Part shown: piece after piece, positions 1 to 33,714 of the stretch | Numbering within the stretch: position 1 is the stretch's first letter | Layout of the letters: each line of letters starts with the position of its first letter | Origin: an uncultured Clostridia bacterium | Lineage (GTDB): Bacteria > Bacillota > Clostridia > Christensenellales > CAG-917 | Direction of reading: 5' to 3' | Length of the DNA: 64,000 bases | NCBI GenBank assembly: GCA_944332995.1 | Contig: CALVKR010000002.1 | Span: forward strand, 191,752 to 255,751 | Position numbers and translations under genes: made by a program | The notes under the pieces: model-generated | Told to the model about the DNA's origin: nothing | The model's input: the letters and a program-made list of their open reading frames with translations, nothing else | Databases searched by the model: none

Positions 1-431
<431 letters not shown>

Positions 432-456
432 TTAGCCCATTGTCGGATAAGACGGT

Positions 457-2994: not shown

Positions 2995-3316
2995 CTTCTC
3001 TTTCCAACCGTTTGTATATCTGATAATACCCCGTCTTGCCGGTAGTGCAAAACAGTTTCCAGAACATTTGTTTACCGTCTATGCTTTTTTTCGTCTTTTT
3101 CATAAATTTAGTTTTTGGCTAAATTTAATTTTTATTCTGCAAGGCGGTATATATACTTATCTCATTTTATCATATTTCGTTTATAATTTTAAGTGTTTGA
3201 AGTTAAAACTATATTAAATTTTCCGCCGTAGCCTATTTATGCCTATTTCCCCGTCAAAATTGCTTGCCGCCTTTTCAGGAACACTTGTGCAAAGAGCAAA
3301 AAAGCCCTTTTCCTAT

Positions 3317-6163: not shown

Positions 6164-6278
6164 ATTTTCACCCGAATATTTTTATCTTTTTTCCATCTCA
6201 TTGCCCGCAGACTTATATCATGCCAAAGCCGCAAAAACAATTCAAAGCGGTACTTTTTTTTGCGCTTTTTCACTTAAA

Positions 6279-15752: not shown

Positions 15753-15754
15753 GC

Positions 15755-17701: not shown

Positions 17702-17790
17702 ATCATCCTCTTTAAAAATCAAATATATTTTATTATAACACAAATCTTGCCAAAACGAAAGGCTAAATTTAATATATTTAAGGTTTTTTC

Positions 17791-17823
17791 AAACAAATAC
17801 GGACGGCAAAAATATGCCGTCCG
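17791..17823 (-). terminator. Rho-independent terminator after the hydrolase gene
   Basis: 9-bp stem CGGACGGCA/TGCCGTCCG with a 6-nt loop, followed by a T-rich tract on the minus strand. Confidence 0.55.
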
Positions 17824-17927
17824 CAATTTTAAAAATTTGAGATTATTATAAATTTTATATAATCGAACAAAATTAAGATTATTATAAATTTTTATAAACT
17901 CATTAAAATTTATCGCAAACGTTTAAC

Positions 17928-18845: not shown

Positions 18846-18939
18846 AAATTACTGCCCCCAAAAAATTTATACAAATATTATACAATAGAGATATCTATTT
18901 TGCAAACATTTTTTTTATTTAAACATACTATATAGTGCT

Positions 18940-19941: not shown

Positions 19942-19950
19942 GTTTTAGAT

Positions 19951-20110
19951 AAAGCAATGCGATACGGATATAAAACAGATGCGCTTTGATTATGAAGAAA
20001 AGCGATAAATTTTAAACGCTAAGCGACGCCTTTTAAAAAGCAACGTGATACGGCTATAAAACACATTCGCTTGTCTTATAAAGGTGATAACTTTTAAACG
20101 CTAAGAGATA
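19951..20110. repeat. Imperfect direct duplication, about 80-86 bp x 2, in the murG downstream spacer
   Basis: AAAGCAATGCGATACGGATATAAAACA...TTTTAAACGCTAAGCGA is followed 86 bp later by AAAGCAACGTGATACGGCTATAAAACA...TTTTAAACGCTAAGAGA. Confidence 0.7.
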
Positions 20111-20203
20111 TTATTAAGCAAAATTATTCCGTCCGTGGCTTATAATGTAAAAGCTATTGCAAAAGCCGAAAATTTGTGATACAACCCCTCTAACGGGGGG
20201 TCT

Positions 20204-21463
20204 ATGGGAAATAACAAAGCAATAAAATGGATACTTGTTATACTTTTGGTAGCAATTTGCATAAGCTGTTTTATAATTGTCTGCACTGTCAATTTAAACT
20301 CTGCAAGCGGAACGAATGCGGAGGAAACGGTAACGGAGGAAAAACCGCCTATAACCGAGGAGCCTCTGCCCGATAAGACGGAGCCTGTCTATTCCGTATT
20401 TCCCCGAGATATAGCAACATACGACTCGGTGGGAGTCGGACATATCGGCGGAACCTTTTCCGATACGCTCATCGAAGTGTTCTCTCTCGGTCAATACTAT
20501 TTTTCTATAATTTCCACAGGCTCAACCGACTACGATTTTACCGAAAGCGGATTTGCGCTTGCAAAATCTACCGACACGTCCTTGCTGGATACGGCGACTT
20601 TCGGCAAAGGCGAATATGTCTGTTCCACCTTTACCGAAGGGAATATTGCCGTTGCCCTTAAATCGGACGGCGTGATAACACTTTTCTTTTTCGACACTTC
20701 TCTTTGCCTGTTATCCTCCTATTCTTTACAGCTCGACGACGCCGTTTTTTATTCGAGCTCGTCAATGCTGTTCGGAACGGCAAACGGCGAACTTTTCGTA
20801 TACGAAACCCTGCCTTCAAAAAGCACTTTGCTTTTTAAAGGCAGGGTAAACGAAAACGTGAAACTAAAACAGATATTTAAAACCAACAATTCCTTTTTGG
20901 TGATAATGTCGGGCGAAAACCTCACAGAGGTTTATTCATACGACACCTCGCTCACTTTGGTCAAAACCATAAACGACGACTACCTCGACTGCTGCATATC
21001 CACCGAGCGTTTTGCGATTTTTTGCACAAGCGGCACCCTATACGCTTTCGACCTCGAGTTTGAGCTCGTTTCAACGCAAAAACTCAAAGAGTGCGTATCG
21101 GCAAAGTTTATCCCTGTTTCGGGCGGCGTTATGCTCGTAACCACAAAAGGATACTATAACCTTTGCTCACACTTCGACAGCCTCAAATTTATGGCGTTTT
21201 CGCTCGAATATCAAAGCGTTGATTTTGCCGTCAAGACGGACGGAGGATATATTCTCGCACAAAGGGACAACCTTGTGGATATTATCCGTTTTACGAGCTT
21301 CGGAAGCTATAACACGCTATATACATTTACCGCCAAAAACACGTTTAAAAGAGTGTTTATAAAACAGAGCGCCTTTACGGTATTTCTGACAAACGCCACT
21401 ATAGACAATATCTTTAAAGACAACTTCGGCGAATCGGACGTATTTTGGCTGTGCCTTAAATAA
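20204..21463 (+). CDS. Hypothetical membrane-anchored protein; extracytoplasmic domain of unknown function
   Basis: 419 aa with an N-terminal TM (WILVILLVAICISCFIIVCTV). The remainder is beta-rich and has no motif I recognise. Confidence 0.5.
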   Translation: MGNNKAIKWILVILLVAICISCFIIVCTVNLNSASGTNAEETVTEEKPPITEEPLPDKTEPVYSVFPRDIATYDSVGVGHIGGTFSDTLIEVFSLGQYYFSIISTGSTDYDFTESGFALAKSTDTSLLDTATFGKGEYVCSTFTEGNIAVALKSDGVITLFFFDTSLCLLSSYSLQLDDAVFYSSSSMLFGTANGELFVYETLPSKSTLLFKGRVNENVKLKQIFKTNNSFLVIMSGENLTEVYSYDTSLTLVKTINDDYLDCCISTERFAIFCTSGTLYAFDLEFELVSTQKLKECVSAKFIPVSGGVMLVTTKGYYNLCSHFDSLKFMAFSLEYQSVDFAVKTDGGYILAQRDNLVDIIRFTSFGSYNTLYTFTAKNTFKRVFIKQSAFTVFLTNATIDNIFKDNFGESDVFWLCLK

Positions 21464-21603: not shown

Positions 21604-22008
21604 ATGGACCAACCGCAGTTTTCTCCGCCGCAAACGGAGACCAAACCCCAAACGCAAAAAGCACCCGCATCGCCTGTCGCGATTGTTTCGTTTGTATTAT
21701 CGCTTGTGGGCACGGTGTTTTTCATAATAGTCATAGCGCTTATTATATCGAGAACGCAAGGTAAAAATCTTTTCAGCTCTATAAACACTTTTGAAAAATA
21801 TATCGCCGTCATGTTCTCGCTTTTTTTGGTGTCGTTTTTCTGTTTTTTGGCGTCGCTCATTACAGGAGCCGTCTCGCTTAAGACGGAATCCAAACTCGGA
21901 TTTGCCGGTCTTATCATATCGGCGATAGAAGTTATTCCGTCAATTATATTTTCCATGGCGTGCGGACTTACGCAATCGATAACAAGTTTAGGTACGGTAA
22001 TGTTATGA
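21604..22008 (+). CDS. Small multi-pass membrane protein (DUF4190-like), hypothetical
   Basis: 134 aa. P/Q/T-rich N-terminus followed by 3-4 TM helices. Its stop overlaps the lgt ATG (ATGA). Confidence 0.55.
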   Translation: MDQPQFSPPQTETKPQTQKAPASPVAIVSFVLSLVGTVFFIIVIALIISRTQGKNLFSSINTFEKYIAVMFSLFLVSFFCFLASLITGAVSLKTESKLGFAGLIISAIEVIPSIIFSMACGLTQSITSLGTVML

Positions 22009-22862
22009 AACCATTTTTATTCGGAGTTATTCCCGCATACGGATTTTTTATTTTTATAGGAGCGGCTTTAGGCGTCTTGCTCGCTACGTTTCGCCGTCGC
22101 CATGACGGAATATCAAACAAAGAGGTTTTCTTTACAGGCGTCATATCTTTAACGATAGGTCTTATAGGCGCAAAGCTGTTTTACATTTTCGGGACGCTTC
22201 CCAAAGTTATTTCGGGAGATATGCCGTGGATTGCCCTTTTTGAATCCGGATTTATGTTTTACGGCGGTCTTATATTCGGAATTTTGGGCGCACTGCTTTG
22301 CGCCTACATTTTCAATATTCCGATAAAGCGTCTTTTTGACGCTCTCTCATTCGGCGTTCCCATAGGACAGGCTTTCGGCAGAATAGGCTGTTTCTGCGCC
22401 GGCTGTTGTTTCGGAATTCCCACCGATTCGGCAATAGGCGTCGTGTTTACCCACCCTCTCGCCTCCACCACTCCCGTGGGCGTTCCGCTCGTTCCCACTC
22501 AGCTGATTGAATCGGCAAGCTGTTTTCTGATTGCCGTCATAATGCTCGTCGTATTTTCCAAAAAGAGAAGGGACGGAGCGGCTTTCTGGACGTATATAGT
22601 GCTTTACGCAGTCACCCGTTTTATAATAGAATTTTTCAGAGGCGACGCCGAAAGAGGTATGATTGGGGCGCTTTCCTCGTCGCAATTCGTCGCAGTGCTG
22701 TTTTTGTCGGCGTTTGTCGTCTATCTTATCGTCCGCAAAATCGTAAAGGCAAAGATAGGCAAAAACGACTCCTTCCTCGAGGCCAAAGGAGTTATTTATA
22801 AACTTCCGAAATGCGCAAAATGGAACATAATGAAATTTGACCAATATGCAAATTTAAAATAA
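22005..22862 (+). CDS. lgt: Prolipoprotein diacylglyceryl transferase
   Basis: MKPFLFGVIPAYGFFIFIGAALG N-terminus, GRIGCFCAGCCFG motif, multi-TM. The ATG at 22005 is preferred over the upstream extension in the ORF track (21960). Confidence 0.85.
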   Translation: MKPFLFGVIPAYGFFIFIGAALGVLLATFRRRHDGISNKEVFFTGVISLTIGLIGAKLFYIFGTLPKVISGDMPWIALFESGFMFYGGLIFGILGALLCAYIFNIPIKRLFDALSFGVPIGQAFGRIGCFCAGCCFGIPTDSAIGVVFTHPLASTTPVGVPLVPTQLIESASCFLIAVIMLVVFSKKRRDGAAFWTYIVLYAVTRFIIEFFRGDAERGMIGALSSSQFVAVLFLSAFVVYLIVRKIVKAKIGKNDSFLEAKGVIYKLPKCAKWNIMKFDQYANLK

Positions 22863-22892
22863 AAAACCGACTGAGTTCAGTCGGTTTATTTT
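22862..22892. terminator. Bidirectional rho-independent terminator between convergent lgt and the protease gene
   Basis: 8-bp stem ACCGACTG/CAGTCGGT with loop AGTT, flanked by an A-run upstream and a T-run downstream. Confidence 0.75.
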
Positions 22893-23060
22893 AGCCTGAT
22901 TTTGCGATATGTTTTGCAATGCGTTATAAAATTTATGTATTCGTTTAAGCCTTATCTTTCTCGCTTTAGCCGTATCGCAGATATCTAATTTCGCTTTTTT
23001 ATCTTAAAAGAGGTTTTAAATAGCTTTGGCGACTTTAGTTAAAATAATCCCCTTTTGGTT

Positions 23061-23873
23061 TTACTCTGCAATTTCCTCTTTTGCTCTTTCCAAAAATTCC
23101 TTGACTGCTTCAAGCGGAATGGCGTAGTTTATACCCAACTTGCCGGAGTCTGCCACAACGACGCCCACGACCTTTCCGTCGTCGCCAATCAAAGGACCGC
23201 CGCTGTTGCCGGGCAGAGTGTTGGCTGTGATTACTATAAACTCCTCGTCGTTCACCTTTCTGAGTTCGTCGGATACAAGACCGTCGATAATGCAAAGCCC
23301 TTTACCTGCGCTGTTGCCGATGGCGTAGATATGCTCGCCTGTCCTCACCGCTTTATCAGAAAATTCGGCAGGTTTTAAATTTTCGGCTTCGATTTTAAGC
23401 AATGCCAAATCCTTTTTCGGGTCGGCGGTAACAAATTCAAGCGTATACATTTGCGATTGCTTATAAAACTTACAATATATGAAATTGGATATATTTTCTA
23501 TCTTTTTATCCGCCGATACCTTGCCCACGCAATGCAAATTTGTAAGAACGTATCCGTCCATACATATAAAACCGCTACCCGTCGAGATTTCGTCGCCGTA
23601 AGTAGCGCCCACGGTAACGACGCTGTCTCTGTTTTTGTCGAACACGTTTAAGTTTTCTTCTTTCTCAATTTCCACAACCGCCTTAGCCTTTTTAACCGCA
23701 GTTTTGGGTGCGTTTTTAAGATTAAAAACTCTCAGCTTAGATTCGCTGTTAAATTCCCCGAAACAGCTGCGGCATTGATAGCCGTAAAAAGTGTTGCCGT
23801 CCTTTTCGTATTCGACAAGCTCTACGATTTCCTCGCTTCCGCAAATTTCGCATTTATCGCATTTAAAAACCAT
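23061..23873 (-). CDS. Zn-ribbon + trypsin-like (S1/Trypsin_2) serine protease; last gene of the candidate system
   Basis: 270 aa. N-terminal CxxC...CxxC (KCDKCEICGS...YQCRSCFG). Catalytic triad candidates are LTNLHCV (His), KKDLALLKI (Asp) and GNSGGPL (Ser). No PDZ domain and no signal peptide. Confidence 0.8.
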   Translation of the reverse strand: MVFKCDKCEICGSEEIVELVEYEKDGNTFYGYQCRSCFGEFNSESKLRVFNLKNAPKTAVKKAKAVVEIEKEENLNVFDKNRDSVVTVGATYGDEISTGSGFICMDGYVLTNLHCVGKVSADKKIENISNFIYCKFYKQSQMYTLEFVTADPKKDLALLKIEAENLKPAEFSDKAVRTGEHIYAIGNSAGKGLCIIDGLVSDELRKVNDEEFIVITANTLPGNSGGPLIGDDGKVVGVVVADSGKLGINYAIPLEAVKEFLERAKEEIAE

Positions 23874-23881
23874 AACTCCTC

Positions 23882-25033
23882 CTACTCGGCAATTTCTTCG
23901 CCGTTTCTGTAAGCCTCGAACTTGGCGAGCTCTTCCTCGGTTATTACGTTTCTCGTAGTCTTAATAGCTTTTTCAAGGTCTTTAAGCGTTATATTTTCCG
24001 CTTTTCCGCTCTTGACCGCTCTCTTATATGCTTCGAGCTTTACTTTTTCGCATATGGCGGTTATATCGCCTCCACCGAATCCCTTAAGCGACACGGCAAA
24101 CGCTTTTAAATCGACATCGTCGTCTTTAGGAAGATTTTTGAGCGCCTTGTTTACCATAAACTCGCGGGCGCCCTCGTCGGGCAGACCGACGTATATTTGT
24201 GTGTCGAAACGGCCGCCTCTGACCATTGCGCTGTCGATGACCCACGGACGGTTGGTAGCGGATATCAAAAGCAGCATTTTGTTTGTCTTAGACTTTTTAA
24301 AGCCGTCTACCTTGGTCAGAAAAGTAGCGACAAATCTTGCCATTTCTGCGTCGACGCCGCCCGAGCTATCCCCTCTTTTTGAAGCGACGGAATCGAATTC
24401 GTCGAAAAAGATTATTGCTCTTTCGTTTTTCTGCGCAGTTTCAAACAGAGCGTCAAGCTGCTTGGAGCTGTCGCCCATATATTTAGAAATGAGGTCCTGA
24501 CAGTTTACTGCAAAAAACTTTGCGTCAACCTCACCTGCTATCGCCCTTGCAATAAATGTTTTACCTGTTCCGGGAGGTCCGTAAAGCATTATCTTTCCGC
24601 CCGGTTTTATATTGTAGAGTTTGGCAAGTTCGGGATTCCCCAGAGGCGCCAACACCTTGAAACGTATCTGATCTTTTACGTCCTCGAGCCCTGCCACGTC
24701 TGCAAAGGTAACTTTGTTTTCATCGGTATCGACAGGCTGAAAGGTAGGCATTTCGTCGTCCTTTTTCTGCGCCTGTTTATTCTGTTCCGCGTCGGCTGTC
24801 CTGATGGGTTTTTTGCCGGAACAATGACTTCTTACAAAGTCGAGAATTTTTGAAGCAAGTTTATGATACTCGATTTTTACGTCGTTCGTAGTCGCTGTCG
24901 TCGATATATCGTCGGCAAGTTCAGCCGCTCTCAAAAATGCGTCTCTTGCTCCTAAAATATCACCGGCACCGTAAAGTTCTTTGCCCGTTGCGTAAAAACT
25001 TTTATATGCTTCCACTTTAGCCGAATTGTTCAT
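23882..25033 (-). CDS. AAA+ ATPase of the classical (Vps4/katanin/FtsH-like) clade with an MIT-like three-helix N-terminus
   Basis: 383 aa. Walker A GPPGTGKT, Walker B IIFFDEFD, second region of homology SATNRPWVIDSAMVRGGRFD. The first 80 or so aa are helical and MIT/TPR-like (GDILGARDAFLRAAELADDI). Confidence 0.8.
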   Translation of the reverse strand: MNNSAKVEAYKSFYATGKELYGAGDILGARDAFLRAAELADDISTTATTNDVKIEYHKLASKILDFVRSHCSGKKPIRTADAEQNKQAQKKDDEMPTFQPVDTDENKVTFADVAGLEDVKDQIRFKVLAPLGNPELAKLYNIKPGGKIMLYGPPGTGKTFIARAIAGEVDAKFFAVNCQDLISKYMGDSSKQLDALFETAQKNERAIIFFDEFDSVASKRGDSSGGVDAEMARFVATFLTKVDGFKKSKTNKMLLLISATNRPWVIDSAMVRGGRFDTQIYVGLPDEGAREFMVNKALKNLPKDDDVDLKAFAVSLKGFGGGDITAICEKVKLEAYKRAVKSGKAENITLKDLEKAIKTTRNVITEEELAKFEAYRNGEEIAE

Positions 25034-25149
25034 ATTCTTTCCCTCACCTTGTAGAGTTTATCGCCTGTGCGATAAGTGTTAAATTATCTGATTTGAATAA
25101 GGAGTTTTTTAGTTCTTGCCTATATTTTGCGTCTTGTATGGGACGCCGC

Positions 25150-27951
25150 CTATCTTTTGAGCTTTAAACCTCTCGAGTTAAAATAATCGTCGATATCGAA
25201 ATGGTCGTCAAATTCAAACTCGTATCGCTCGTCGTCATCGTCGTCACGGTCGAGCCTTTTTTCGTTGAACTCAAAAATGTTTTCATACCTCGTTATTGCG
25301 GAAGGAAATATAACGAGCGCCAAAACGACAGCCATGAAAAATCCCACTGCGCTCGTGCCGCTTTCGCTTGCACGTATAATCTGCATTCTCGCATTTTTTA
25401 CACCGCCGAATTTTTCGTTTTTATATTGCTCGTTGACAACGTTAAGTTTATAATCTCTATACTTTTTAATCCTGAATCTTAACACGACCAAGGATATAAT
25501 AGACAAAACGGCAAATACGAGCATGAGCACGAAAGTTACGAATGCTCCGCCCAAAAATTTGTTTTGGGTTTCCGCCACTATCGTTACCACAAAACAGGCA
25601 ACAAACGCCATAAACAGCAACGTCGCCGTCAGTACGTAAGGAGCAATCGAAACCTTTTGCTTTTGCGATTCGTTTTTCGCTCTAGCCTCGTCCCACTTTT
25701 TTTGCACTTTATACAACGTCGAGCCCTTTTCAACGCCCGTGCCGTTAAGCGGAGGATTGTTATCTTTTCTGTTTTGCCCTTGATTTTGAGCCTGATAATT
25801 TTTAGCGTTTTTTACGATACGCATGCAATTTTGCGTTTGTCTGTCGTCTGCCACCGCAAGAAAGTTTACAAACTCGGGCATTGCGGATATATCCGCTCCG
25901 CTTCTCTCCAGCTCGCTGTCCGTGGAGGCTTTTGCCTTTGCCATGATAAGTTGCCAGAACACGTTCGGGTTTTCTTTATCGTATTCAAGCCTGAGTTTGA
26001 GATAATACACGGCAGAATCGAAAAATCCTGCTTTCATACAGGCGTCCGTCATTGCCGTTAGCTGTCCGTCGATTTCGCTTACGTCGGAGGGATAATATCT
26101 TATGACGTGATTGAAAGTTTCAACACAATTAGCCGTGACAGGCGCACTGTAAAGTGCGTCGAGGACGGCGGTTATCTCCCTTTGCTGCCCGACCTTGTCG
26201 AGAGATATCAAAAGCGCCTCGAACTCGTCGAATTTAAAACGGTTCGGCAATGCGATATCCCGGTCATATCTGACCTCGGACGGAGATATCGGGCTAAGCG
26301 ACGTTGTCCTGATAATTCCTCTTAATGCGTCGGTATAGCCTGCGTCGATTTTTAAAACTCTCGAAAAATACATCTTCGCAACGGAATACTGCTTTTTATA
26401 AAGCGCCGCCACGGCAAACTCGTATAAGTATCTAATGTGCAAATCGACGTCCGAGGAATCGACTGCGCATATAACTTTTTCAAATAGAGAAGGCGAAACC
26501 TTCATCGACACCGCTTTCATTATTTTTTCTACGTTTGCTTTTGAGTTTTCGTAAGAATACGGCAATATGGCATCAAGAAGCGAAAGTGCGTCCTTTTCGT
26601 TTACCTCGACAAGGTTTGCCGCCAAACCGTAAAAGATGTCGAGAGCGGAAACGGCAAAGTCCTTGCTTGCCTTCGATATAATTTCGTCCGCCATATCCGA
26701 TTCGGGAAACGCTTCCGACTTTATAAAATCGGAAACGCTCATACAGCGACGGTTGACAAACAGTTTATACATAAGTGCTTCCGCACTGTCAGGATTTGCC
26801 TTTAAAATCGAATCGAGCAAAGCTGACGCCTCGTCAAACAATCCGTTTTGCGCCATCGTCTTGACGACGGCAAGCTGTTTTTTCTCGGAAAGCGATAAAT
26901 CTATTCCTTTAAGATTGAGGCTTTTTTGCTCAAGCTGTTTTGTCGCAACCTCTTTCGCCCTTTTTAACACTCTGCCGGATTTAAGGCTGATTTTTTCAAT
27001 GCCGTTGCCTTCGGTGGAAGTCGTTTCCTCAAACACCTTTTCTATGTGCCTTAAAAGGTCGCCGAGAAAGGTTTTTTTGGAGCCGTCGAGGCATTGCCTG
27101 TTTTTAAGAGATGACGGCAAAAGGCTCGGGTCGAAATTTTCATATACCACAACAAGGCTTGCCGAATGTTTTTCACCCTCTGCCAACAGTTTGGCATAAC
27201 GGCGCCATTCGTTTTTCACCCACGCCGACGTGACGTAATCGGGATTTTGAGCGTAAACTATCATAACTCTCGCCGTTTTGATAGCGTTAAAAATATAAGG
27301 CTCGTATTGCTCGGCAATCTTATCTCTTAAACTTTCTCTCGAAAAGAATACTCTGTATCCTGCCTGAGTGAGGTATGTATAAAGATTCTGAGCCTCATAG
27401 CTGTCTTTGGTGCGCTCTATTCCCTTTTCCGAGTCGCTGTCTTTGTAACATATGAAAATATCGTAAGGTTTTTCCTTGCTCGCTTTAAAAAGCCATTCCG
27501 TGCGGATTTTTTCTATCTTTTCGCCCAAGCGGACGTAATTATCTTTAACCTCGCCGACGCTGTGCTCGATTGCGGCAAGATAATCTTTGTCCTGCAAAAA
27601 TGACGATTCGCTTATCCTGTGACAGGTGGGAACTTTTTTCGAGTCGACGTCGTCGACAAACAAAACTCCCGCCCTTGCCAAAGCCCTGCCCCAATAAGCC
27701 TCGTGGCAGTCGCTGTCGGCGGATATAACTCGGCTGAAAGATTCCTCGGCTTCTTCAAATTCGCCTTTTCTGAGGTCGTCGAAAGCGTTATACAGTATGA
27801 CCTCGTTTTGCGATTTTGCCGTCCTGCTTTCATATTTTGCGCCGCATGCAAGACACTCCAAAACGACCCCGTCGTCACGAAGGGGACCGCCGCATATTTT
27901 ACAAATAAGTTGTGTAAGTGTGTCTTTTTCCATATTCAATCGTTTAGGCAA
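25150..27951 (-). CDS. Zn-ribbon - TIR domain - helical (TPR-like) repeats - 3 TM - acidic tail protein
   Basis: 933 aa. CKICGG...CLACGAKY at the N-terminus. TIR-like block at aa ~161-300 (YDIFICYKDSD...GYRVFFSRESL...ARVMIVYAQNPDYVTSAWVKNEW). Three C-terminal TM helices, then the tail DRDDDDDERYEFEFDD. An alternative ATG start lies at 27933. Confidence 0.75.
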   Translation of the reverse strand: MPKRLNMEKDTLTQLICKICGGPLRDDGVVLECLACGAKYESRTAKSQNEVILYNAFDDLRKGEFEEAEESFSRVISADSDCHEAYWGRALARAGVLFVDDVDSKKVPTCHRISESSFLQDKDYLAAIEHSVGEVKDNYVRLGEKIEKIRTEWLFKASKEKPYDIFICYKDSDSEKGIERTKDSYEAQNLYTYLTQAGYRVFFSRESLRDKIAEQYEPYIFNAIKTARVMIVYAQNPDYVTSAWVKNEWRRYAKLLAEGEKHSASLVVVYENFDPSLLPSSLKNRQCLDGSKKTFLGDLLRHIEKVFEETTSTEGNGIEKISLKSGRVLKRAKEVATKQLEQKSLNLKGIDLSLSEKKQLAVVKTMAQNGLFDEASALLDSILKANPDSAEALMYKLFVNRRCMSVSDFIKSEAFPESDMADEIISKASKDFAVSALDIFYGLAANLVEVNEKDALSLLDAILPYSYENSKANVEKIMKAVSMKVSPSLFEKVICAVDSSDVDLHIRYLYEFAVAALYKKQYSVAKMYFSRVLKIDAGYTDALRGIIRTTSLSPISPSEVRYDRDIALPNRFKFDEFEALLISLDKVGQQREITAVLDALYSAPVTANCVETFNHVIRYYPSDVSEIDGQLTAMTDACMKAGFFDSAVYYLKLRLEYDKENPNVFWQLIMAKAKASTDSELERSGADISAMPEFVNFLAVADDRQTQNCMRIVKNAKNYQAQNQGQNRKDNNPPLNGTGVEKGSTLYKVQKKWDEARAKNESQKQKVSIAPYVLTATLLFMAFVACFVVTIVAETQNKFLGGAFVTFVLMLVFAVLSIISLVVLRFRIKKYRDYKLNVVNEQYKNEKFGGVKNARMQIIRASESGTSAVGFFMAVVLALVIFPSAITRYENIFEFNEKRLDRDDDDDERYEFEFDDHFDIDDYFNSRGLKLKR

Positions 27952-28060
27952 CAGCCGACGGCAAAGCCTTATAAACGTAGCCGTTTATCAAATCGGAAAT
28001 AAAGCAAGCGTTCCCGTCGCATACGACGTCAAATAAACCCACTTTAAAACTCCGAGCTTA

Positions 28061-28111
28061 AAACTTTCCGCTCCCCCGCCCGCTACCCGTCTGGGCAGAC
28101 GGACGGAAAGC
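28061..28111 (-). terminator. Candidate compound hairpin / terminator between the Snf7-like gene and the TIR gene
   Basis: GC-rich nested stems: CTTTCCG...CGGAAAG enclosing CCGTCT-GGGC-AGACGG. TTTT follows on the minus strand. Confidence 0.4.
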
Positions 28112-28120
28112 GAATTGTTA

Positions 28121-28717
28121 TCAGTCTAAAATTTTGTTTTTCTCTTTTGCTATCTCGTCCGCAAGGCTCATACCCGTGCTCTTGGGTGCGTTTGGCAAAG
28201 CCGCTCCGCTGAGTTTCGCTCTTGCGGCGTCTATCATGGGACGGACTGCCGATATCTCGTCGTTGCTTCTTGCCCTGTTGGCAGGATTGGACGACTTCAT
28301 GGCGCCCGCCATAGCCTTTTGAGAAATTTTTATGTTTCTCATATACTTGCTGATTTTGATGTTCGCCTTTTGAATTTTCTTGATATCCGGCATTTTGGCT
28401 TTATTGCCCGCCATTTTGTCGAGAGCGTTGATAGCCATTGCCATATTCTGAGCGATAGCGTTTGAAACGTTTATTATATCAAAATTCGCCTTTGTCTGCG
28501 TGAGCGAGCTGATAACGTCGTTAAGTTCGATAAGAGCGTTTACCGCCACGTCGTAGCTGCCCATATCGCCGTTTATTTCCGCCTGAGCGGCAATGTTGGC
28601 ATATTCCTGTCTTTTGGCGGTGAGCTCGTTTATCTGGTCGTTAAAAATCTGCATTTGCTCGTCGCGTTCCATTTGCGCTATAATTTCTTTTTCTTGTTTG
28701 GTTTTGTAGAAAGCCAT
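28121..28717 (-). CDS. ESCRT-III superfamily-like (Snf7/PspA-like) all-helical protein, candidate
   Basis: 198 aa, predicted long helical hairpin. The segment NFDIINVSNAIAQNMAMAINALDKMAGNKAKMPDIKKIQKANIKISKYM resembles the Snf7 alpha2-alpha4 core. The C-terminal LADEIAKEKNKIL is MIM-like. GGAGG RBS. Confidence 0.45.
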   Translation of the reverse strand: MAFYKTKQEKEIIAQMERDEQMQIFNDQINELTAKRQEYANIAAQAEINGDMGSYDVAVNALIELNDVISSLTQTKANFDIINVSNAIAQNMAMAINALDKMAGNKAKMPDIKKIQKANIKISKYMRNIKISQKAMAGAMKSSNPANRARSNDEISAVRPMIDAARAKLSGAALPNAPKSTGMSLADEIAKEKNKILD

Positions 28718-28733
28718 AAAATGTTTCCCTCCT

Positions 28734-29741
28734 CTATTTTACGGTTGGCGTATCTTGATTTCCGACTTCTTCTTCATCCAAATCGGACATGCTCGATTGA
28801 GCTGCTTTTTGAGCGTTTCGTTTTGCGATAAGTTCCTGTTGATAGGCAACGGCTTCGCTCGTGGCGGCGTCGTCGACTTCGCCGAATCCGCTTATCTTTT
28901 GTTCGTTGGCTTCGATTTTAGGCACCATGGCTTTTAAATCTTCTTCCATTTTCTTGAGCGTGGTAACCGCCCTTTCCGGCTCGGCAATGACCTTTTTGAG
29001 GTCGTCCACTTTAAGATATGCCTTTGCCTTATTAAGTTCGGATACGGAAAACTCCGAAGCTATGATTTTTTCTCCCACCAAACTTGCTATCATATCGAGC
29101 AAATCGCTGCAAAAGCTGTAGTTGCGGTAAGTATTGTTGAGTGCGTTGAGCTTAACCTTGACCGCCTTGACTTTAGATACGAGATTGTTGAGTTTGCGGT
29201 CGTTTTTTTCGTCTATTATGGCGTCGTTCAATTCGTCGATATCTCTTTCGAGGTTCTGCATTTCCGCCTCGAGTCTCTTTTCGTTTGAAAGATATTCCGA
29301 TTGCACGTCCTTTAATTCCGAAAGTTTTTCTTCAAGTTTTCTTCTTACCGACGAGGTTTCTCTCTTTTGGAGTTCCTCGCCTGCAATGGACGAATCCACG
29401 TCGCCGTAGAGCACGCTTGACCATTTATCGATAGTATAGTCGAGGTCGTCCACCGACTGAATGAGCCTGCCGCTGAGATATGACTTCATTTGGTCTCTTA
29501 CGTCGTCAATTTGAATCAAAGCGGTATTATAAAAACATTCGATGTTTTCGTCGCCCGTACCCACGATTTCTTCAAAATTTTTGATAACGTCGTAAAGTTT
29601 TTTTCTTGCCTGCTGAACGGATTCACCGTTTAAATCTTTGTTGTATCTTCCCTTATCGATATCAAATATGACGCCCTGCAATTTTTTTGCGACCTCGTCG
29701 CGCATGGCGTTGTTTGCTTTTACTGACGGTTTATACTTCAT
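28734..29741 (-). CDS. Long coiled-coil protein (possible PspA/ESCRT-III-like or TelA-like), hypothetical
   Basis: 335 aa with heptad-rich E/K/L/N composition and an acidic C-terminus. Its start overlaps the SPFH gene stop by 11 nt, with a GGAGGGGG RBS inside the upstream gene. Confidence 0.4.
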   Translation of the reverse strand: MKYKPSVKANNAMRDEVAKKLQGVIFDIDKGRYNKDLNGESVQQARKKLYDVIKNFEEIVGTGDENIECFYNTALIQIDDVRDQMKSYLSGRLIQSVDDLDYTIDKWSSVLYGDVDSSIAGEELQKRETSSVRRKLEEKLSELKDVQSEYLSNEKRLEAEMQNLERDIDELNDAIIDEKNDRKLNNLVSKVKAVKVKLNALNNTYRNYSFCSDLLDMIASLVGEKIIASEFSVSELNKAKAYLKVDDLKKVIAEPERAVTTLKKMEEDLKAMVPKIEANEQKISGFGEVDDAATSEAVAYQQELIAKRNAQKAAQSSMSDLDEEEVGNQDTPTVK

Positions 29742-30408
29742 CGCTATCCCCCTCCGAATTGACGGCGTTTTTTATCATGAGCATATCTTCTTCCGGCACG
29801 AAAATTTTTGCCGTTAAAGTGTTTACCTCTATTCCCATGTCTTTTATCAATTCTTTTTCGTTTAACTGTTTTTTGATTGCCACAGATACTTCTTCCGTCT
29901 TGGCGGTAACCTCAAAAACGGAAACCGTCGTATCGGCAAAAAGAGTCGCCACTGCGTCGGAAGCCACCATCTGCATGCATGACAGCACTTTTTTCTTTAT
30001 ATCGTCAAGAGTGATAACTGTTCCGAATTTGAAGTTGTCGATAAATCTGCGGTCGTTTACCACCTCGAAGACACATTCTCCGTTGGCGCCCACTCTGTAT
30101 GCCTGTTTAAGTTTCGGGTTTTTGACCTGAATGTCGCCCACTCCCCAAAGAATTTTCGGGAATACCGTGCTGACAAACGCCACCCTAAGCTGTTTTTTAA
30201 GATAACTTCTGTCCTTTTTCAAAAGGTCGAAAACTCTTTCGTCGGCGCACTGCTTGACCACCGCTTCGATTTTTTCATCGATATACAGATAAGCCTTAAA
30301 CTGCCTCGGAACGGTTATATTTACGTCCTTGGTCAATTCGAGCGGTTCGCAAAACTGAACGATTAAGTTTTCGTCGGCATAAGGTTTCAATAATACTTTT
30401 TTCGACAT
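29731..30408 (-). CDS. SPFH/Band-7-like protein of the YdjI (COG4260) type
   Basis: 225 aa, colinear by eye with B. subtilis YdjI-type proteins (ITVPRQFKAYLYIDEKI.., ..WGVGDIQVKNP.., YRVGANGECVFEVVNDRRFIDNF, ITLDDIKKKV, GIEVNTLTAKIFVPEED). Confidence 0.55.
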   Translation of the reverse strand: MSKKVLLKPYADENLIVQFCEPLELTKDVNITVPRQFKAYLYIDEKIEAVVKQCADERVFDLLKKDRSYLKKQLRVAFVSTVFPKILWGVGDIQVKNPKLKQAYRVGANGECVFEVVNDRRFIDNFKFGTVITLDDIKKKVLSCMQMVASDAVATLFADTTVSVFEVTAKTEEVSVAIKKQLNEKELIKDMGIEVNTLTAKIFVPEEDMLMIKNAVNSEGDSDEV

Positions 30409-30414
30409 AACTTA

Positions 30415-30777
30415 CTACCTCTCCTTATTTTCGGTTGACTTGATCACCTGGCAAATCCTTTCAATCGTTTCGTCGTCGAGATTTTCTTTTGCAACGGCGT
30501 ATATGACCCTCCTGCGGTTCTCCTCGAGATTAGCAAAATCAAGACGCATATTTTCAAGCGAGGAAGCAAGCGCCTTTTTCATCTTTTCCTGTTCTTCAGG
30601 CGTAAGGTCGTAGTTTGCCAAAATTGCGTCCTTCAAATCGTCGGGAACGTTGCGTTTGCCGTTTTCGATTGCCGAAAGATATGACGCCGAAATCCCCAGT
30701 TTTTCCGCCATTTGCTTTGCGCTGTCGCCGCAGTTGATACGAATTATCCTGAGTGTTTTTCCAAATTCCGTTATCAT
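30415..30777 (-). CDS. XRE-family helix-turn-helix transcriptional regulator; first gene of the cluster
   Basis: 120 aa with an HTH_3 signature (FGKTLRIIRINCGDSAKQMAEKLGISASYLSAIENGKRNVP). AAAGGAGAA RBS. Confidence 0.85.
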   Translation of the reverse strand: MITEFGKTLRIIRINCGDSAKQMAEKLGISASYLSAIENGKRNVPDDLKDAILANYDLTPEEQEKMKKALASSLENMRLDFANLEENRRRVIYAVAKENLDDETIERICQVIKSTENKER

Positions 30778-30818
30778 AGTATTCTCCTTTAATATATAAA
30801 ACGTTTTTGACTGTGTTT

Positions 30819-30847
30819 ATTATAGCATTGAAAAATGAAATAGTCAA
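30819..30847 (-). promoter_or_regulatory. Near-consensus sigma-A promoter for the XRE-led operon
   Basis: Minus strand reads TTGACT, a 17-nt spacer, then TATAAT (-35 at 30842-30847, -10 at 30819-30824), about 40 nt upstream of the XRE ATG. Direct repeats TGTAAATTT x 2 lie just upstream at about 30861-30885. Confidence 0.65.
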
Positions 30848-31039
30848 TAGGTGTATTTGAAATTTACAAAAAAAATTTACATTTTATGTGAAAATTTTTT
30901 AATCAAAAACGGCTTCCGCCCCCTTTTTGCCGTCTTAAACGCTTTTTTACAAAAAAACATAAGGCACAAAGGCAGATTGATTTTGCCGTTTAAGGCGAAA
31001 AGTTTTTAACGACATATTGTGAGAACTTAGACGGCGATA

Positions 31040-31897
31040 TCAAAGCACGACTTTAATTTTGCTCGGCGAATTTTGAACGCTCACGATAAACTTTTCGCCG
31101 GGGTAGTATTTTTCGCCGTCAAGGCAAAACGGATAATTTTTATCCAACTCGACTTCGAGGTTTTTTACCGCTTTAAAAGTCATGTTTTTCGAACGGTATT
31201 CCTTTTTAAAACCTATAAAAAAGGCTCGAAATAGCGGAAAGAAAATTTTAAACTTTTTGAAATGCCCTTTAGGAGTTCTTATCGTAAGAAGGTGAAAAAG
31301 TCCGTCGTTAAACTTATACAACCGGTTGAAGCGGAATCCGAAACATCTTTGAGAATCAAGGCACATAATCAAAGAATAAACTCCCTCGTCCGTTTTTCCG
31401 TCTGCCACGAGTTTTGCTTTCATATCGTAAACTTTGTATTCTTTAAAAACTTTAAAAATATATGCAAGCCACTTAAAGCGTTTCTTGCTCTTGTTCGAGG
31501 TGGAATATCCGATAGGAGTAAACGAGCCGCTCGCAAAAACGTAGACGAACTGATGGGAATCCACCCTGCCTATCTCGGATATGGTAAGGTCACTGCCCTG
31601 TTTTTTCATGTGTCCGGAAAACTCGTTTAAAGTGCCGTAAGGGAAATACAGCACGTCGATGCCCGTTTTCGACGCAATGTTCAAAGCGTTGCTCAGCGTA
31701 CCGTCGCCTCCGCAAACGGCAACTGCGTCGCACTCGTCAAGCTCAAACGTGTCCTTTTCGTCGGCTATCATAATAACTTCCGTCACCGTATATTCTTCGT
31801 CGGGAAACCTGTGTTTGAGCTTATCCAAAATGATTTTGTCATAGGCTTTTTCTCCGTTTCCGCTCAGTTTATTGATGACGATCTTCAATCTTTTCAT
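31040..31897 (-). CDS. Diacylglycerol/lipid kinase family protein (YegS/BmrU-like)
   Basis: 285 aa with the GGDGT motif (VAVCGGDGTLSNALN) and a DAGK catalytic-domain layout. Confidence 0.75.
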   Translation of the reverse strand: MKRLKIVINKLSGNGEKAYDKIILDKLKHRFPDEEYTVTEVIMIADEKDTFELDECDAVAVCGGDGTLSNALNIASKTGIDVLYFPYGTLNEFSGHMKKQGSDLTISEIGRVDSHQFVYVFASGSFTPIGYSTSNKSKKRFKWLAYIFKVFKEYKVYDMKAKLVADGKTDEGVYSLIMCLDSQRCFGFRFNRLYKFNDGLFHLLTIRTPKGHFKKFKIFFPLFRAFFIGFKKEYRSKNMTFKAVKNLEVELDKNYPFCLDGEKYYPGEKFIVSVQNSPSKIKVVL

Positions 31898-32318
31898 ACC
31901 GCTTTCATTTTACCATATATTGACGTATTGTCTATGCTTTTTAAACAAATTTAACTATCTATTTAGGCTCTACTATATATTATAAGCTCGTTTAATCTAT
32001 TTTGAGCACTAAAATCTCTTTAATACCCCGTCCGTTTTGGATTGAACCCGATTTTGCCTAATGACGATTTAACTTTTAAATGCTTTTATGCGGTATCGGG
32101 TAAACGGTATCGAAACAAGACAGATTAAACCGTTGCAATAAACTATGGCGGTTAGACGGTAGCGATTAAATAATTTTGAATATACCGCAACGAACATATC
32201 CCGTTAAATAAGCGATAATGATTAAACTGTATTGTTAAACGGTATCGGATAATCGATATTGAATATGCATGCTTGAGAGGAAAAATAAAAAAAGCGGCAT
32301 AAGCCGCATAAAGTAAGA

Positions 32319-32370
32319 AAAAGGTAGAACATCCAAAAAAATCGGAGAGAAAAAAGATGTTCTACCTTTT
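32319..32370. repeat. Perfect 15-bp inverted repeat (hairpin) inside a long ORF-free region
   Basis: AAAAGGTAGAACATC, a 22-nt spacer, then GATGTTCTACCTTTT. An adjacent short hairpin GCGGC-ATAA-GCCGC has an A/T run at 32282-32307. Confidence 0.7.
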
Positions 32371-32898
32371 ACCACATAGGTGGCATATAATAGGAAAACT
32401 ATTTAACCTGCCTACGCACACATCTTATTTTTTAAAACTTAAAATTAAATTAAAAACAAATTTAATTTTAAAAATTTTTTTTTAATTCGCATTTATTTCG
32501 CATTTTTTTCAAACCGACCCTCAAACCGCCACTAAAGTTTTAATTTTAGTGCCGCTCTTTAGTCTGTTGCGTTTCCCTTCTTTTCAATTTAATACGTTTT
32601 TAAGTTTTTCGGTTAAAATAAGGTTAAATAATAGCTATTATAAAAGAATTATCAAAATATTATCAAAAAAACGGTTTGATTAAACGCAGGCATTTTCATA
32701 TATTCGTTGTCTCCCTATTTAAGTTTTAAGCTGTTAATTTAAATCGAACGAAGTAAAAACGGTCCGTCGCAAGTTATCCGACGGCTAAAAATATAAAATT
32801 TATAGCTTTAATCGCTTTTAAGTGTTGCAACATTTATATTTTCGGTTAAAATTTAATTGGAGCGACGCATTGTCGCACTTAAAGGCAAAGGAGTAAAT

Positions 32899-33576
32899 AT
32901 GAGAGTTTTACTTATCGAAGACTCAACGAGTTTATCGCAAGCGTTGGTTGCGGTGCTCAAAAAGGAAAAATACGAGGTAGAAAACGTCTACGACGGCGAA
33001 AGCGGGCTCGAATTCGGGCTGAGCAACGTTTTTGACATTATCCTGCTTGACGTTATGCTTCCCGAGATGAGCGGTTTTGACGTTCTGAAAAAACTCAGAC
33101 AAAACAAGATAACAACCCCTATAATCATGCTTACCGCCCTGTCCGACGAGGCGAACAAAGTGCACGGGCTCGACTGCGGGGCGGACGACTATATCGCCAA
33201 ACCCTTTTCTATTCCCGAGCTTCTCGCAAGGATAAGAGCGCTGACGCGCCGCAAAAGCGACAGCTATCAGGGATTTATATCACACAACGGAGTCAACCTC
33301 GACGTCAACACCTACAAGGTGGAATACGACGGCAAAAGCGTAAAACTTTCGGTGAAGGAATTTGAGATTTTAAAGTATCTTTTTGAAAAAGGAAACGCCA
33401 TTGCCGATAAAGAAAATCTTATCGCAAAAGTGTGGGGATTCGACAGCGAATTTGAATCGAATACCCTTGAAGTTTTCATTTCCTTTCTAAGAAAGAAACT
33501 TGCGTTTTTAAACGCCCCCTTTACCATAAACGCAATAAGAGGCGTGGGCTATCAGCTCGAGGACAAAAAAGATTAA
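32899..33576 (+). CDS. OmpR/PhoB-family response regulator
   Basis: MRVLLIEDS receiver domain (D...LLDVMLP..., K at IAKPF) and a winged-helix C-terminus (IRGVGYQL). AGGAG RBS 7 nt before the ATG at 32899. Confidence 0.9.
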   Translation: MRVLLIEDSTSLSQALVAVLKKEKYEVENVYDGESGLEFGLSNVFDIILLDVMLPEMSGFDVLKKLRQNKITTPIIMLTALSDEANKVHGLDCGADDYIAKPFSIPELLARIRALTRRKSDSYQGFISHNGVNLDVNTYKVEYDGKSVKLSVKEFEILKYLFEKGNAIADKENLIAKVWGFDSEFESNTLEVFISFLRKKLAFLNAPFTINAIRGVGYQLEDKKD

Positions 33577-33714
33577 ACGCCTTACAGCTTGAATTTATTC
33601 GGACTTTAAATTTGCAACGGTAAAAATCAAAACGGCAAACAGCCAAACCGCAAAAATAAAGCGTCAAATTTAAAACGCTTTAAATGCAAAAGCAATCGTC
33701 AATCGGAACGGAAT

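Follow-up and report, generated by a model that had tools for sequence, protein, structure and literature searches.

Gene content and layout of the cluster

We have analyzed a cluster of seven genes, g1 to g7, in 64,000 nucleotides of DNA from an uncultured Clostridia bacterium of the Christensenellales (GTDB lineage CAG-917; assembly GCA_944332995.1, contig CALVKR010000002.1, positions 191,752 to 255,751 of the forward strand). This whole stretch is referred to as the window, and coordinates given without a locus number are positions in it. The cluster joins an SPFH protein, a coiled-coil protein and a probable ESCRT-III-like protein to an AAA+ ATPase, a serine protease and a membrane protein with a TIR domain. 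With moderate confidence, we consider that these genes build one membrane-associated system. The features are listed below from the promoter to the terminator, with protein lengths in amino acids (aa).

30819 to 30847, minus strand: sigma-70-type promoter upstream of g1, TTGACT-17-TATAAT with a TG extension
30415 to 30777, minus strand: g1, XRE-family helix-turn-helix (HTH) regulator, 120 aa (HTH_31, HTH_3)
29731 to 30408, minus strand: g2, SPFH protein of the Band_7_1 (YdjI-like) family, 225 aa (PF13421)
28734 to 29741, minus strand: g3, helical/coiled-coil protein of an uncharacterised family, 335 aa (conservation among loci)
28121 to 28717, minus strand: g4, probable ESCRT-III-like protein of the Snf7/CdvB/CHMP type, 198 aa (AlphaFold2, Foldseek and profiles)
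about 28059 to 28114, minus strand: GC-rich hairpin followed by UUUU, candidate attenuator or partial terminator (folding of the g4-g5 gap)
25150 to 27933, minus strand: g5, membrane TIR protein, 927 aa from the preferred ATG (TIR_2, tetratricopeptide repeats (TPR), transmembrane (TM) scan)
23882 to 25033, minus strand: g6, classical-clade AAA+ ATPase, 383 aa (AAA, AlphaFold2)
23061 to 23873, minus strand: g7, Zn-ribbon and trypsin/HtrA-like serine protease, 270 aa (Trypsin_2)
22864 to 22887, minus strand: intrinsic terminator closing the cluster (10-bp stem, 5 GC pairs, then TTTATTTT)

The seven co-directional minus-strand genes that a first-pass annotation of the window had described were all recovered at the same positions by a scan for open reading frames (ORFs). 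Their spacings were also reproduced exactly, being from g1 to g7 a 6-nt gap, an 11-nt overlap, a 16-nt gap and gaps of 169, 116 and 8 nt. The near-consensus promoter proposed ahead of the cluster was found as well; read from 30847 to 30819, it matches 11 of 12 positions, and it is both the only 11/12 site and the top-scoring site within 22800-31200. At the other end, a strong terminator with a 10-bp stem and a T-run (22887-22864) lies just 3' of g7.

The 169-nt gap between g4 and g5 folds with a minimum free energy of -69.3 kcal/mol (z = -4.34), a stability reached by 0 of 200 shuffled versions. A simple terminator scan missed the hairpin in this gap (about 28059-28114). Because a hairpin with UUUU follows g4, it is unproven that one promoter serves all seven genes, and the claim of a single operon is weakened: of the arrangement first proposed, the promoter stands and the single transcript is not established. 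The expression levels of g1-g4 and g5-g7 may differ, or the two groups may be expressed partly separately. An Rfam scan of the cluster gave no match.

Conservation of the gene set

Linkage was surveyed in metagenome contigs and in one genome per species, which gave 36 species-level loci; individual loci are cited by number (L followed by three digits) where they need to be told apart. A database clustered at 90% identity contained 622 homologues of g4 (E <= 0.001), and each of the top 120 showed more than 70% identity. Wherever upstream sequence exists in the 36 loci, g1-g2-g3-g4 are contiguous and in the same order. The regulator gene g1 was detected in 25 of the 36 and heads the block in each of those, and g3 is present in 35, the lone exception being truncated by a contig end. 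Sixteen loci have full flanks; all of them carry g2 and g3, 15 carry a g5-type gene and 12 an AAA gene. In three of the four full-flank loci without an AAA gene, giant or fragmented g5-type genes occupy or exceed most of the 10-kb flank, and the remaining one (L024) has no downstream partner.

Downstream of g4 the order varies, from g4-g5-g6-g7 as in the window to g4-g6-g5-g7 and g4-AAA2-g5-g6-g7, where AAA2 is a second ATPase described below. The g4-g5 gap narrows to 12-40 nt elsewhere, and many loci, along with the most divergent relatives, have an AAA gene of the g6 or AAA2 type directly after g4, at a distance of 2-30 nt. Since the gene set is kept through these rearrangements, it provides strong evidence for functional linkage. 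The suggestion that the seven genes form a conserved linked set and not a local accident was therefore borne out in 36 species-level genomes with permuted orders, and the division into four plus three genes proved to be a real modularity among genes that co-occur.

The distant loci show which parts can be absent. L044:446-5934 and L045:378-5866 encode an HTH protein, homologues of g2, g3 and g4 (g4 with 37% identity), an AAA protein and two Zn-ribbon trypsin-like proteases, one with the Zn-ribbon at its C-terminus and the other at its N-terminus, and they have no TIR gene. Genes for ABC/FtsX proteins and a C39-peptidase ABC exporter follow the proteases in these two loci. In L043, where g4 identity is 24%, an AAA gene stands directly after g4, and an extra 209-aa gene there has no detectable paralogy to g4. 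L024:7122-10582 holds g1-g4 alone; it could be a separable four-gene unit, a decayed system or an assembly join in a metagenome-assembled genome (MAG). Its downstream region up to 19638 carries galactarate/altronate dehydratase, an AraC regulator, a rhamnosidase and sugar ABC permeases. The universal core is the HTH regulator, the SPFH protein, the coiled-coil protein, g4 and an AAA ATPase, usually with a protease, and the TIR membrane protein is a clade-specific addition, yet one that is present in most loci.

The g4 protein and the ESCRT-III superfamily

The AlphaFold2 (AF2) model of g4, computed from a 44-sequence alignment, contains helices at residues 7-49, 52-102, 112-142, 152-170 and 185-197. 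The first two form a long hairpin with a predicted local distance difference test (pLDDT) score of 77-87; the mean over the model is 68, and the linker before the last helix is of low confidence. The overall order corresponds to the canonical ESCRT-III layout, that is, a long alpha1/alpha2-3 hairpin, alpha4, alpha5 and a short C-terminal helix in a protein of about 200 aa. Foldseek against the PDB gave no match at E <= 1e-3, every E being 0.09 or higher. Among the matches with a probability of at least 0.6, nearly all are ESCRT-III proteins: CHMP2A/CHMP3 (7zcg) at 0.95/0.98, CdvB2 (9s99) at 0.93, and further CdvB, CHMP3 and Asgard ESCRT-IIIB (9s9j, 2gd5, 9ftl). One de novo designed protein scored 0.60, and 14-3-3, Shroom and others scored 0.41 or lower. 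On the structural side, the layout and the top-probability matches both agree, each weakly, with the ESCRT-III-like reading of this 198-aa protein.

Sequence profiles gave a fainter signal. An exhaustive HMMER profile search of 1.84 billion proteins showed the g4 family to be narrow, with 45 clusters at 50% identity, and the g4 profile found no bridge to the Snf7 or PspA families among these representatives, so that transitive homology failed. The narrow profile (A1) returned only noise from the PDB. With a profile broadened by divergent members from the exhaustive search (A2), the top match among 177,635 PDB sequences was Sulfolobus CdvB (9s9j_A, E 0.0059), with the hairpin in register. Comparison of A2 by hhalign with human CHMP2A gave E 0.0033, and with a CHMP2A-family alignment, a shallow one (Neff 1.5), E 0.0024 at a probability of 12%; both alignments are collinear and place g4 residues 49-126 on CHMP2A 53-136. 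The CHMP2A query is 100% identical to the database CHMP2A. In further comparisons, hhalign of A2 gave nothing useful for CHMP3 and no match for E. coli PspA, the latter sequence not being database-verified. No Pfam family was assigned to g4, neither Snf7 (PF03357) nor PspA_IM30 (PF04012) at E <= 0.1, and 44 family members gave no match to these two at E <= 10; NCBIfam and PADLOC also returned no match for g4. The Snf7/PspA-like label was not reproduced by these family models.

Reading of the alignments revealed two conserved ends. The N-terminus MAF(F/Y)KxKxEKE is nearly invariant and resembles the N-terminal LLFGRRKTPEE of CHMP2A. The terminal helix, (D/S)LxxEIxxEKN, is conserved after a flexible linker and is placed like the MIT-interacting motifs of ESCRT-III proteins. 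Considering that several weak lines agree, g4 probably belongs to the ESCRT-III superfamily, on its Snf7/CdvB side. Its earlier description as Snf7/PspA-like is accordingly narrowed: the Snf7/CdvB/CHMP half is retained on the weak AF2, Foldseek and profile lines, and the PspA half is dropped for want of a PspA_IM30 match. From this likeness, g4 would most likely polymerize, and it may remodel membranes.

The AAA+ ATPases

The g6 protein is an AAA+ ATPase of the classical clade (Pfam AAA, 133 bits) with intact Walker A and B motifs, arginine fingers and a pore loop SKYMGDS. In the AF2 model, it consists of a three-helix N-domain, a disordered linker, a single AAA domain and a C-terminal helix. 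The N-domain (residues 4-70) is a three-helix bundle with pLDDT 80-92, and the AAA core is poorly modelled. On the one hand, this is the architecture of Vps4, and for the segment from the pore loop to Walker B the best single-domain PDB match is Vps4, with 41 bits versus 30-35 bits per Cdc48 or VAT domain. On the other hand, the whole protein is nearest to Cdc48/p97/VAT and PAN, and its best PDB and Foldseek matches are Cdc48/p97 (in Foldseek the D2 domain of p97), a Foldseek result that, on the whole model, reflects mainly the AAA core and says nothing on the N-domain. The NCBIfam scores were 209 bits for PAN, 201 for CDC48, 193 for FtsH and 170.5 for CdvC, whose cutoff is 650, and Vps4_C (PF09336) reached 19.0 bits, below its cutoff of 21.3. 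On this basis, g6 cannot be called a Vps4 orthologue. The first-pass annotation had called this protein Vps4-like with a MIT-like N-domain. Vps4-likeness holds for the architecture and not for the overall affinity, and the MIT-like assignment was not reproduced by sequence searches, which detected no MIT family in the N-domain and instead matched it to TPR_2 in 11 of 15 members and to consensus-TPR PDB chains.

A second AAA+ ATPase of 406-483 aa, AAA2, is encoded in nine loci (L013, L016, L017, L018, L020, L026, L028, L029 and L034). In eight of them it directly follows the g4 homologue (for example L028:3465-4745), and in L018 it follows g6; the g6-g7 pair is retained in several of these loci. 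AAA2 has a helical N-domain, for which sequence searches found no match, MIT included, and a low-complexity acidic or Pro-rich linker. Its first pore loop, GGLGNS, is without an aromatic residue, and its best single-domain PDB match is katanin. Among the three AAA2 proteins tested against Vps4_C, those of L028 (23.1 bits) and L017 (22.2 bits) scored above the cutoff of 21.3 and that of L013 reached 19.2. The coupling of an ESCRT-III-like gene to AAA+ genes of Vps4 architecture holds for the system family.

The membrane TIR protein

The ORF of g5 extends to a TTG at 27951 (933 aa). The ATG at 27933 (927 aa) is preferred because the first ORF with a start codon in the near-identical locus L007 begins there in our ORF scan. 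From its N-terminus, g5 is composed of a Zn-ribbon, a TPR-like region, a TIR domain (residues 165-292), helical/TPR repeats, three TM helices and an acidic tail. Pfam assigned TIR_2 to residues 165-292 with 42.7 bits (cutoff 28), together with TPR_19, TPR_16 and TPR_14, and a hydropathy scan placed the TM helices at 773-791, 805-823 and 868-886. By the positive-inside rule, the last 47 acidic residues are predicted to lie outside the cell. PADLOC gave no match for g5.

All 29 g5 homologues examined share the N-terminal ~310 residues. This module comprises a Zn-ribbon of the form CxxC...CxxCG, a TPR-like stretch with an invariant WG...GI...D...P.C and the TIR domain. The motif W-x-x-(N/D)-E-W, including the Glu at the canonical TIR catalytic position, is invariant in 29/29; we take this Glu to be at the position of the catalytic glutamate in TIR NADases. 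From its conservation, g5 may have a putative activity in cleaving NAD+ or producing a signal.

Beyond about residue 320, the g5-type proteins vary, their total length ranges from 460 to 3154 aa, and some loci have two or three paralogues in tandem. In L004-L006 and L046-L049, which include loci on integrative and conjugative elements (ICEs), the TIR proteins are 1231-3154 aa long (e.g., L004:10612-17979; L046:11363-15550 and 15701-20585). The ICE-borne TIR proteins have one TM helix near residues 920-950 and, beyond it, LRR_5/Flg_new repeats over 300 to about 2000 aa, LRR_5 being leucine-rich repeats (LRR). The LRR-bearing proteins often occur as two tandem paralogues with a small 233-aa multi-TM LRR_5 protein. 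Their predicted topology is a cytoplasmic Zn-ribbon-TPR-TIR module, one TM helix and an extracellular LRR region. The g5 protein of the window, with its three TM helices, 47-aa acidic tail and no LRR, is the minimal form; at the other extreme, the predicted extracellular repeat region exceeds 2000 aa. The presence of giant receptor-like TIR proteins in relatives alters the view of the TIR role that had been taken from the window.

The remaining proteins

The g1 protein was matched by HTH_31 (E 7.5e-11) and HTH_3 (E 3.3e-10) in Pfam and by the HTH_VI, control-protein and capH-like models of PADLOC, a weak likeness to control regulators of defence systems. Band_7_1 (PF13421) was found in g2 at residues 76-212 with 31.0 bits (cutoff 24). 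By eye, the translation of g2 has no TM helix, and PADLOC gave no match for it. The g2 relatives (217-855 aa) retain Band_7_1, the longer ones included, and the homologue in the distant L044 was detected at E 3e-15. For g3, no Pfam, NCBIfam or PADLOC family was found beyond coiled-coil noise, and its profile against the PDB also gave only coiled-coil noise; its homologue in L044 was recognized by hhalign with a probability of 98.7%.

The protease g7 carries an N-terminal Zn-ribbon and scored 87.5 bits with Trypsin_2 in Pfam and 102 bits, below the cutoff, with degP_htrA in NCBIfam. The motifs of the H/D/S triad (TNLHC, DLALL and GNSGGP) were recognized by eye, and there is no PDZ domain. PADLOC matched g7 to RT-Protease_XI and to the Avs1b protease-domain. 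In most loci that hold both, g7 stands closely 3' of g6. The domain contents first read from the translations of g1, g2, g7 and g5 were confirmed: an XRE HTH protein by Pfam, an SPFH/YdjI-like protein by Band_7_1 above cutoff, a Zn-ribbon protease with a trypsin fold by Trypsin_2, and the TIR domain, TPR repeats and three TM helices of g5 by Pfam and the hydropathy scan.

Hosts and mobile contexts

The hosts are Clostridia (Christensenellales and others) and Bacilli (Acholeplasmatales, Anaeroplasma), with g4 identity of 61-86% across these loci. Such a patchy host range at this identity indicates horizontal spread. Two loci with g4 identity of 77-78% come from MAGs assigned outside Bacillota, to Elusimicrobiaceae (L013) and Bacteroidaceae (L014); contamination during binning or transfer between phyla on a mobile element would account for their placement.

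In L005, L006, L047 and L048 (upstream region 1-6500) and in L004 and L046 (1-6300), the g1-g4 module with an identical g4 protein was found in mobile contexts. Some of these contigs have g1-g4 downstream of type IV secretion system (T4SS) genes (TrbL, PrgI, VirB4/TraG-like), and others have it beside a tyrosine integrase, a PemK toxin, a Y-family polymerase and a LexA-like S24 repressor. These neighbours point to carriage of many copies on integrative or conjugative elements. A small, divergently transcribed 106-aa HTH_19-like gene on the minus strand precedes g1 in L005:6515-6835, L046:6514-6834, L047:6516-6836 and L049:2107-2427, and with g1 it suggests a two-repressor switch in the ICE-type loci that is without a counterpart in the window.

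In the window itself, the flanking genes are housekeeping genes (gyrB/gyrA, GT28, lgt, a DAGK-type lipid kinase and PNPase). They were identified in a scan of 10 large ORFs within ~10 kb on each side, and in these ORFs the scan revealed neither integrase nor transposase domains. The statement that the cluster has housekeeping flanks and lies off mobile elements is thus correct for this genome, and it does not extend to relatives that adjoin T4SS genes or integrases. A two-component pair at 32857-35172 was identified by eye from the translation.

Several other observations concern the surroundings. Just downstream of the cluster, and likewise in its closest relatives L008, L010 and L011, there are two plus-strand ORFs, one of 419 aa (20204-21463) with an N-terminal TM helix and no Pfam family and an adjoining membrane ORF of 134 aa (21604-22008). 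They are lineage-specific neighbours or possibly associated genes. The G+C content falls to 0.325 at 32001-33000, versus a window background of ~0.44; this dip falls in non-coding DNA flanked by the genes of the lipid kinase and the two-component response regulator. L007 (FR901010.1), deposited as 'Acidaminococcus sp. CAG:917', is 99% identical to the window at the g4 locus, and since Christensenellales or Clostridia are the labels on the cluster's nearest relatives, this genus name looks unreliable.

Possible function and alternative explanations

We propose that the proteins of the cluster make up a single membrane-associated system, which is horizontally transferred among gut Bacillota and acts in membrane-level conflict or surveillance, that is, against phages or other mobile genetic elements or by abortive infection; the chance that this whole account is right appears to us about even. 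Among the possible roles, conflict or surveillance was judged the most likely because of the mobile and patchy spread, the variable and duplicated receptor-like genes, the conserved TIR Glu and the defence-type protease. The signals of this type in the data are the T4SS, integrase and PemK neighbours, the defence protease matches of g7, the capH and control-protein matches of g1 and the tandem variable TIR-LRR genes. A defence or abortive-infection role can reasonably be inferred from them.

During the proposed response, the SPFH and coiled-coil proteins would organize a membrane patch around the TIR protein. This patch would recruit g4 through its N-terminal basic/hydrophobic motif, and g4 would polymerize there. 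The three-helix N-domain of the AAA+ ATPase may grip the conserved C-terminal helix of g4, by which the polymer would be disassembled or turned over, and the ATPase could possibly hand substrates to the protease. The TIR protein would serve as both sensor and effector: clustering by an extracellular or membrane cue may activate the conserved Glu, and the activated TIR domain would consume NAD+ or make a signal. Membrane remodelling would then be a part of the response.

Several points weigh against this proposal. The ESCRT-III assignment of g4 is statistically weak (Foldseek E >= 0.09, profile E 0.006, hhalign probability 12%), and g6 is overall more like Cdc48/p97 D2 than Vps4, with no MIT family detected. 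A terminator-like hairpin parts g4 from g5. L024 has g1-g4 alone and the L044/L045 branch is without TIR, so the core machine does not depend on the TIR protein. Housekeeping genes surround the cluster in this genome, and no relative was found in the IMG/VR viral contigs. Extracellular sensing would be unusual for a bacterial defence system. Finally, no known defence model matches g2, g4 or g5.

If the proposal is true, bacteria gain a Snf7/CdvB-type ESCRT-III-like protein that is genetically coupled to an AAA+ ATPase of Vps4 architecture, and a TIR domain that is tied to a receptor-like integral membrane protein with leucine-rich-repeat ectodomains. The compact locus would then make it testable how ESCRT-III-type polymers are taken apart in bacteria. 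Also, the gene set is abundant in human and animal gut metagenomes and is carried on conjugative elements, and it may shape the traffic of phages and plasmids in the gut. A bolder version, which we regard as a speculative one and rather improbable, is that gut Bacillota possess a true ESCRT-III/Vps4-type machine which, joined by an SPFH scaffold and a protease, was recruited as the output or safeguard arm of a transmembrane TIR protein of the receptor kind; in most members, this protein would sense the surface through LRR/Flg_new ectodomains. This would be an analogue of Toll-like receptor immunity coupled to ESCRT-mediated membrane shedding or repair.

Another explanation is an envelope-stress or membrane-repair system without an immune role. 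In that case, the SPFH, coiled-coil and ESCRT-III-like proteins would stabilize damaged membrane, the AAA+ ATPase would recycle the polymer, the protease would clear damaged proteins and the TIR protein would be an anchor or scaffold. The pairing of SPFH and ESCRT-III-superfamily proteins is known from B. subtilis pspA-ydjGHI and some archaeal ESCRT loci, the envelope and lipid genes lgt, DAGK-type kinase and GT28 are neighbours in the window, and the core persists without TIR in L044/L045. However, a repair function accords poorly with the patchy, mobile distribution in ICE and integrase contexts and with so narrow a family (45 clusters among 1.84 billion proteins). The invariant TIR Glu would be unneeded by a pure scaffold, and the huge variable LRR/Flg_new ectodomains and tandem paralogues resemble recognition modules. 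Considering both sides, we find this explanation unlikely.

It is also doubtful that the cluster is an accessory for the surface biology of mobile elements, in which an ESCRT-III/AAA machine would sort, turn over or bud membrane with giant LRR/Flg_new proteins (mating-pair adhesins, exclusion, vesicle release) and the Zn-ribbon-TPR-TIR module would be a cargo or adaptor handle. This idea draws on the relatives that stand immediately 3' of the T4SS genes TrbL, PrgI and VirB4-like and on their partner membrane proteins of up to 3154 aa, whose LRR_5/Flg_new repeats after a single TM helix are typical of Gram-positive surface proteins; moreover, archaeal ESCRT-III/Vps4 has been proposed to shed DNA-bearing vesicles (PMC7619361). 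Yet the full system is retained in the window, where the TIR ectodomain is just 47 aa and no conjugation genes are near the cluster, and L044/L045 are without such a membrane protein. The conserved TIR Glu and the protease would also be left unexplained.

The possibility of two independent, often adjacent units, with g1-g4 as an SPFH/ESCRT-III-like module and g5-g7 as a TIR and AAA-protease unit resembling IetAS, is very improbable: although a terminator-like hairpin and a 169-nt gap follow g4, a 116-nt gap precedes g6, L024 has only sugar-metabolism genes after g1-g4, g6 scores 146 bits on the PADLOC IetA model and g7 matches defence protease domains, the AAA gene comes 2-30 nt after g4 in many loci and the most divergent relatives, the set stays together in permuted order across 36 species, the g4-g5 gap is just 12-40 nt in other loci, IteA reaches 128 bits against a cutoff of 510 and g7 is trypsin-like, not an S8 subtilase.

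Comparison with known systems

No named system was found at the cluster by PADLOC or NCBIfam, and full-text searches of the literature gave no description of this gene set. The first impression that it corresponds to no named defence system therefore persisted, PADLOC being blank for g2, g4 and g5 and the IteA and CdvC scores lying far below cutoff.

The cluster is similar to the archaeal and eukaryotic ESCRT-III/Vps4 (Cdv) system in that g4 is a predicted helical hairpin protein of ~200 aa with an ESCRT-III-like layout, for which CdvB, CHMP2A and CHMP3 are the closest matches in the PDB. Linked to its gene is that of a classical AAA+ ATPase, in which a small N-domain of helices and a linker precede the only AAA domain and a C-terminal helix follows it. 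Sister loci have a Vps4_C-positive AAA gene right after the hairpin gene, and an SPFH gene is in the locus. SPFH proteins accompany some archaeal ESCRT loci as well as B. subtilis PspA (YdjI), and archaeal variants with SPFH-coiled-coil-Zn-ribbon proteins have been described (Makarova et al. 2024, PMC10936438). On the other hand, g4 has no Snf7 match in Pfam, g6 is below the CdvC and Vps4_C thresholds and closer to Cdc48 D2, and the cluster is without a detected MIT family, CdvA or ESCRT-I/II parts. It also resides in a bacterial host, a member of the gut Bacillota, and is extended by an XRE regulator, a membrane TIR protein and a trypsin-like protease.

In bacteria, a Vps4-like ATPase 'appears absent in bacteria' according to a 2025 review, which also relates the proposal that archaeal ESCRT-III/Vps4 releases DNA-carrying vesicles (PMC7619361). 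Ravi et al. (2024, PMC11237479) reported Vps4-like AAA+ genes that were transferred to bacteria and adjoin a TPR and 6TM protein 'with snf7 displaced', and occasional PspA or TM-Snf7 homologues beside other AAA+ ATPases. Our cluster resembles these contexts in placing an AAA+ gene of Vps4 architecture beside a TPR and multi-TM protein. Unlike the contexts in which Snf7 is displaced, it contains a candidate ESCRT-III-like gene, and its TIR protein and protease occur in none of the Psp contexts of that study.

The operon pspA-ydjGHI of B. subtilis, with which the first-pass annotation had drawn a parallel, likewise combines a Band_7_1 SPFH protein, an ESCRT-III-superfamily member (in our case a candidate) and Zn-ribbon partners at the membrane. 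The cluster has no PspA_IM30, YdjH (TPM) or YdjG. With only Band_7_1 in common and no PspA_IM30 or TPM domains, the parallel does not stand, and we rejected the cluster as a homologue of this operon.

With bacterial TIR defence systems (Thoeris ThsB and TIR-fused effectors), the cluster shares a TIR_2 domain with the conserved Glu of W-x-x-(N/D)-E-W, a mobile and patchy distribution and variable partner domains. It differs from them in the lack of ThsA and of a SLOG, Macro or SAVED-type reader of TIR products, in that no PADLOC TIR model matches g5, and in having the TIR domain on an integral membrane protein with an ectodomain. Membership in Thoeris was not indicated, since NCBIfam ThcB4 reached 17.5 bits versus a cutoff of 220 and the cluster has no ThsA-like gene.

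The pair g6-g7 recalls IetAS, an anti-phage system of an AAA ATPase (spelled IteA by NCBIfam) and a protease, in that 8 nt separate the gene of a classical AAA ATPase from that of the serine protease behind it, and in that PADLOC IetA models give g6 up to 146 bits. This score is generic AAA similarity. The NCBIfam IteA score of g6 is 127.7 bits versus a cutoff of 510, the pair lies inside a larger conserved set, and IetS is an S8 subtilase-type protease, unlike the trypsin/HtrA-like g7. An assignment of g6-g7 to IetAS was rejected for the scores far below cutoff and the wrong protease class.

Like animal Toll-like receptors, the proteins of L004-L006 and L046-L049 join a TIR domain, one TM helix and a large LRR ectodomain in one polypeptide. 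In contrast to Toll-like receptors, the order is reversed, with an N-terminal TIR domain and a C-terminal LRR region, this region belongs to the bacterial LRR_5/BspA type and is accompanied by Flg_new repeats, and g5 of the window is without LRR. The resemblance is one of architecture, not demonstrated homology. Our literature searches found no description of a bacterial TIR domain on a receptor-like integral membrane protein with an LRR ectodomain.

In summary, each enzymatic part of the cluster is a member of a known superfamily, and the combination is undescribed as far as we searched. The cluster differs from the published systems in bringing together a candidate ESCRT-III-like gene beside an AAA+ ATPase gene with an SPFH protein, a coiled-coil protein, a protease and a membrane TIR protein.

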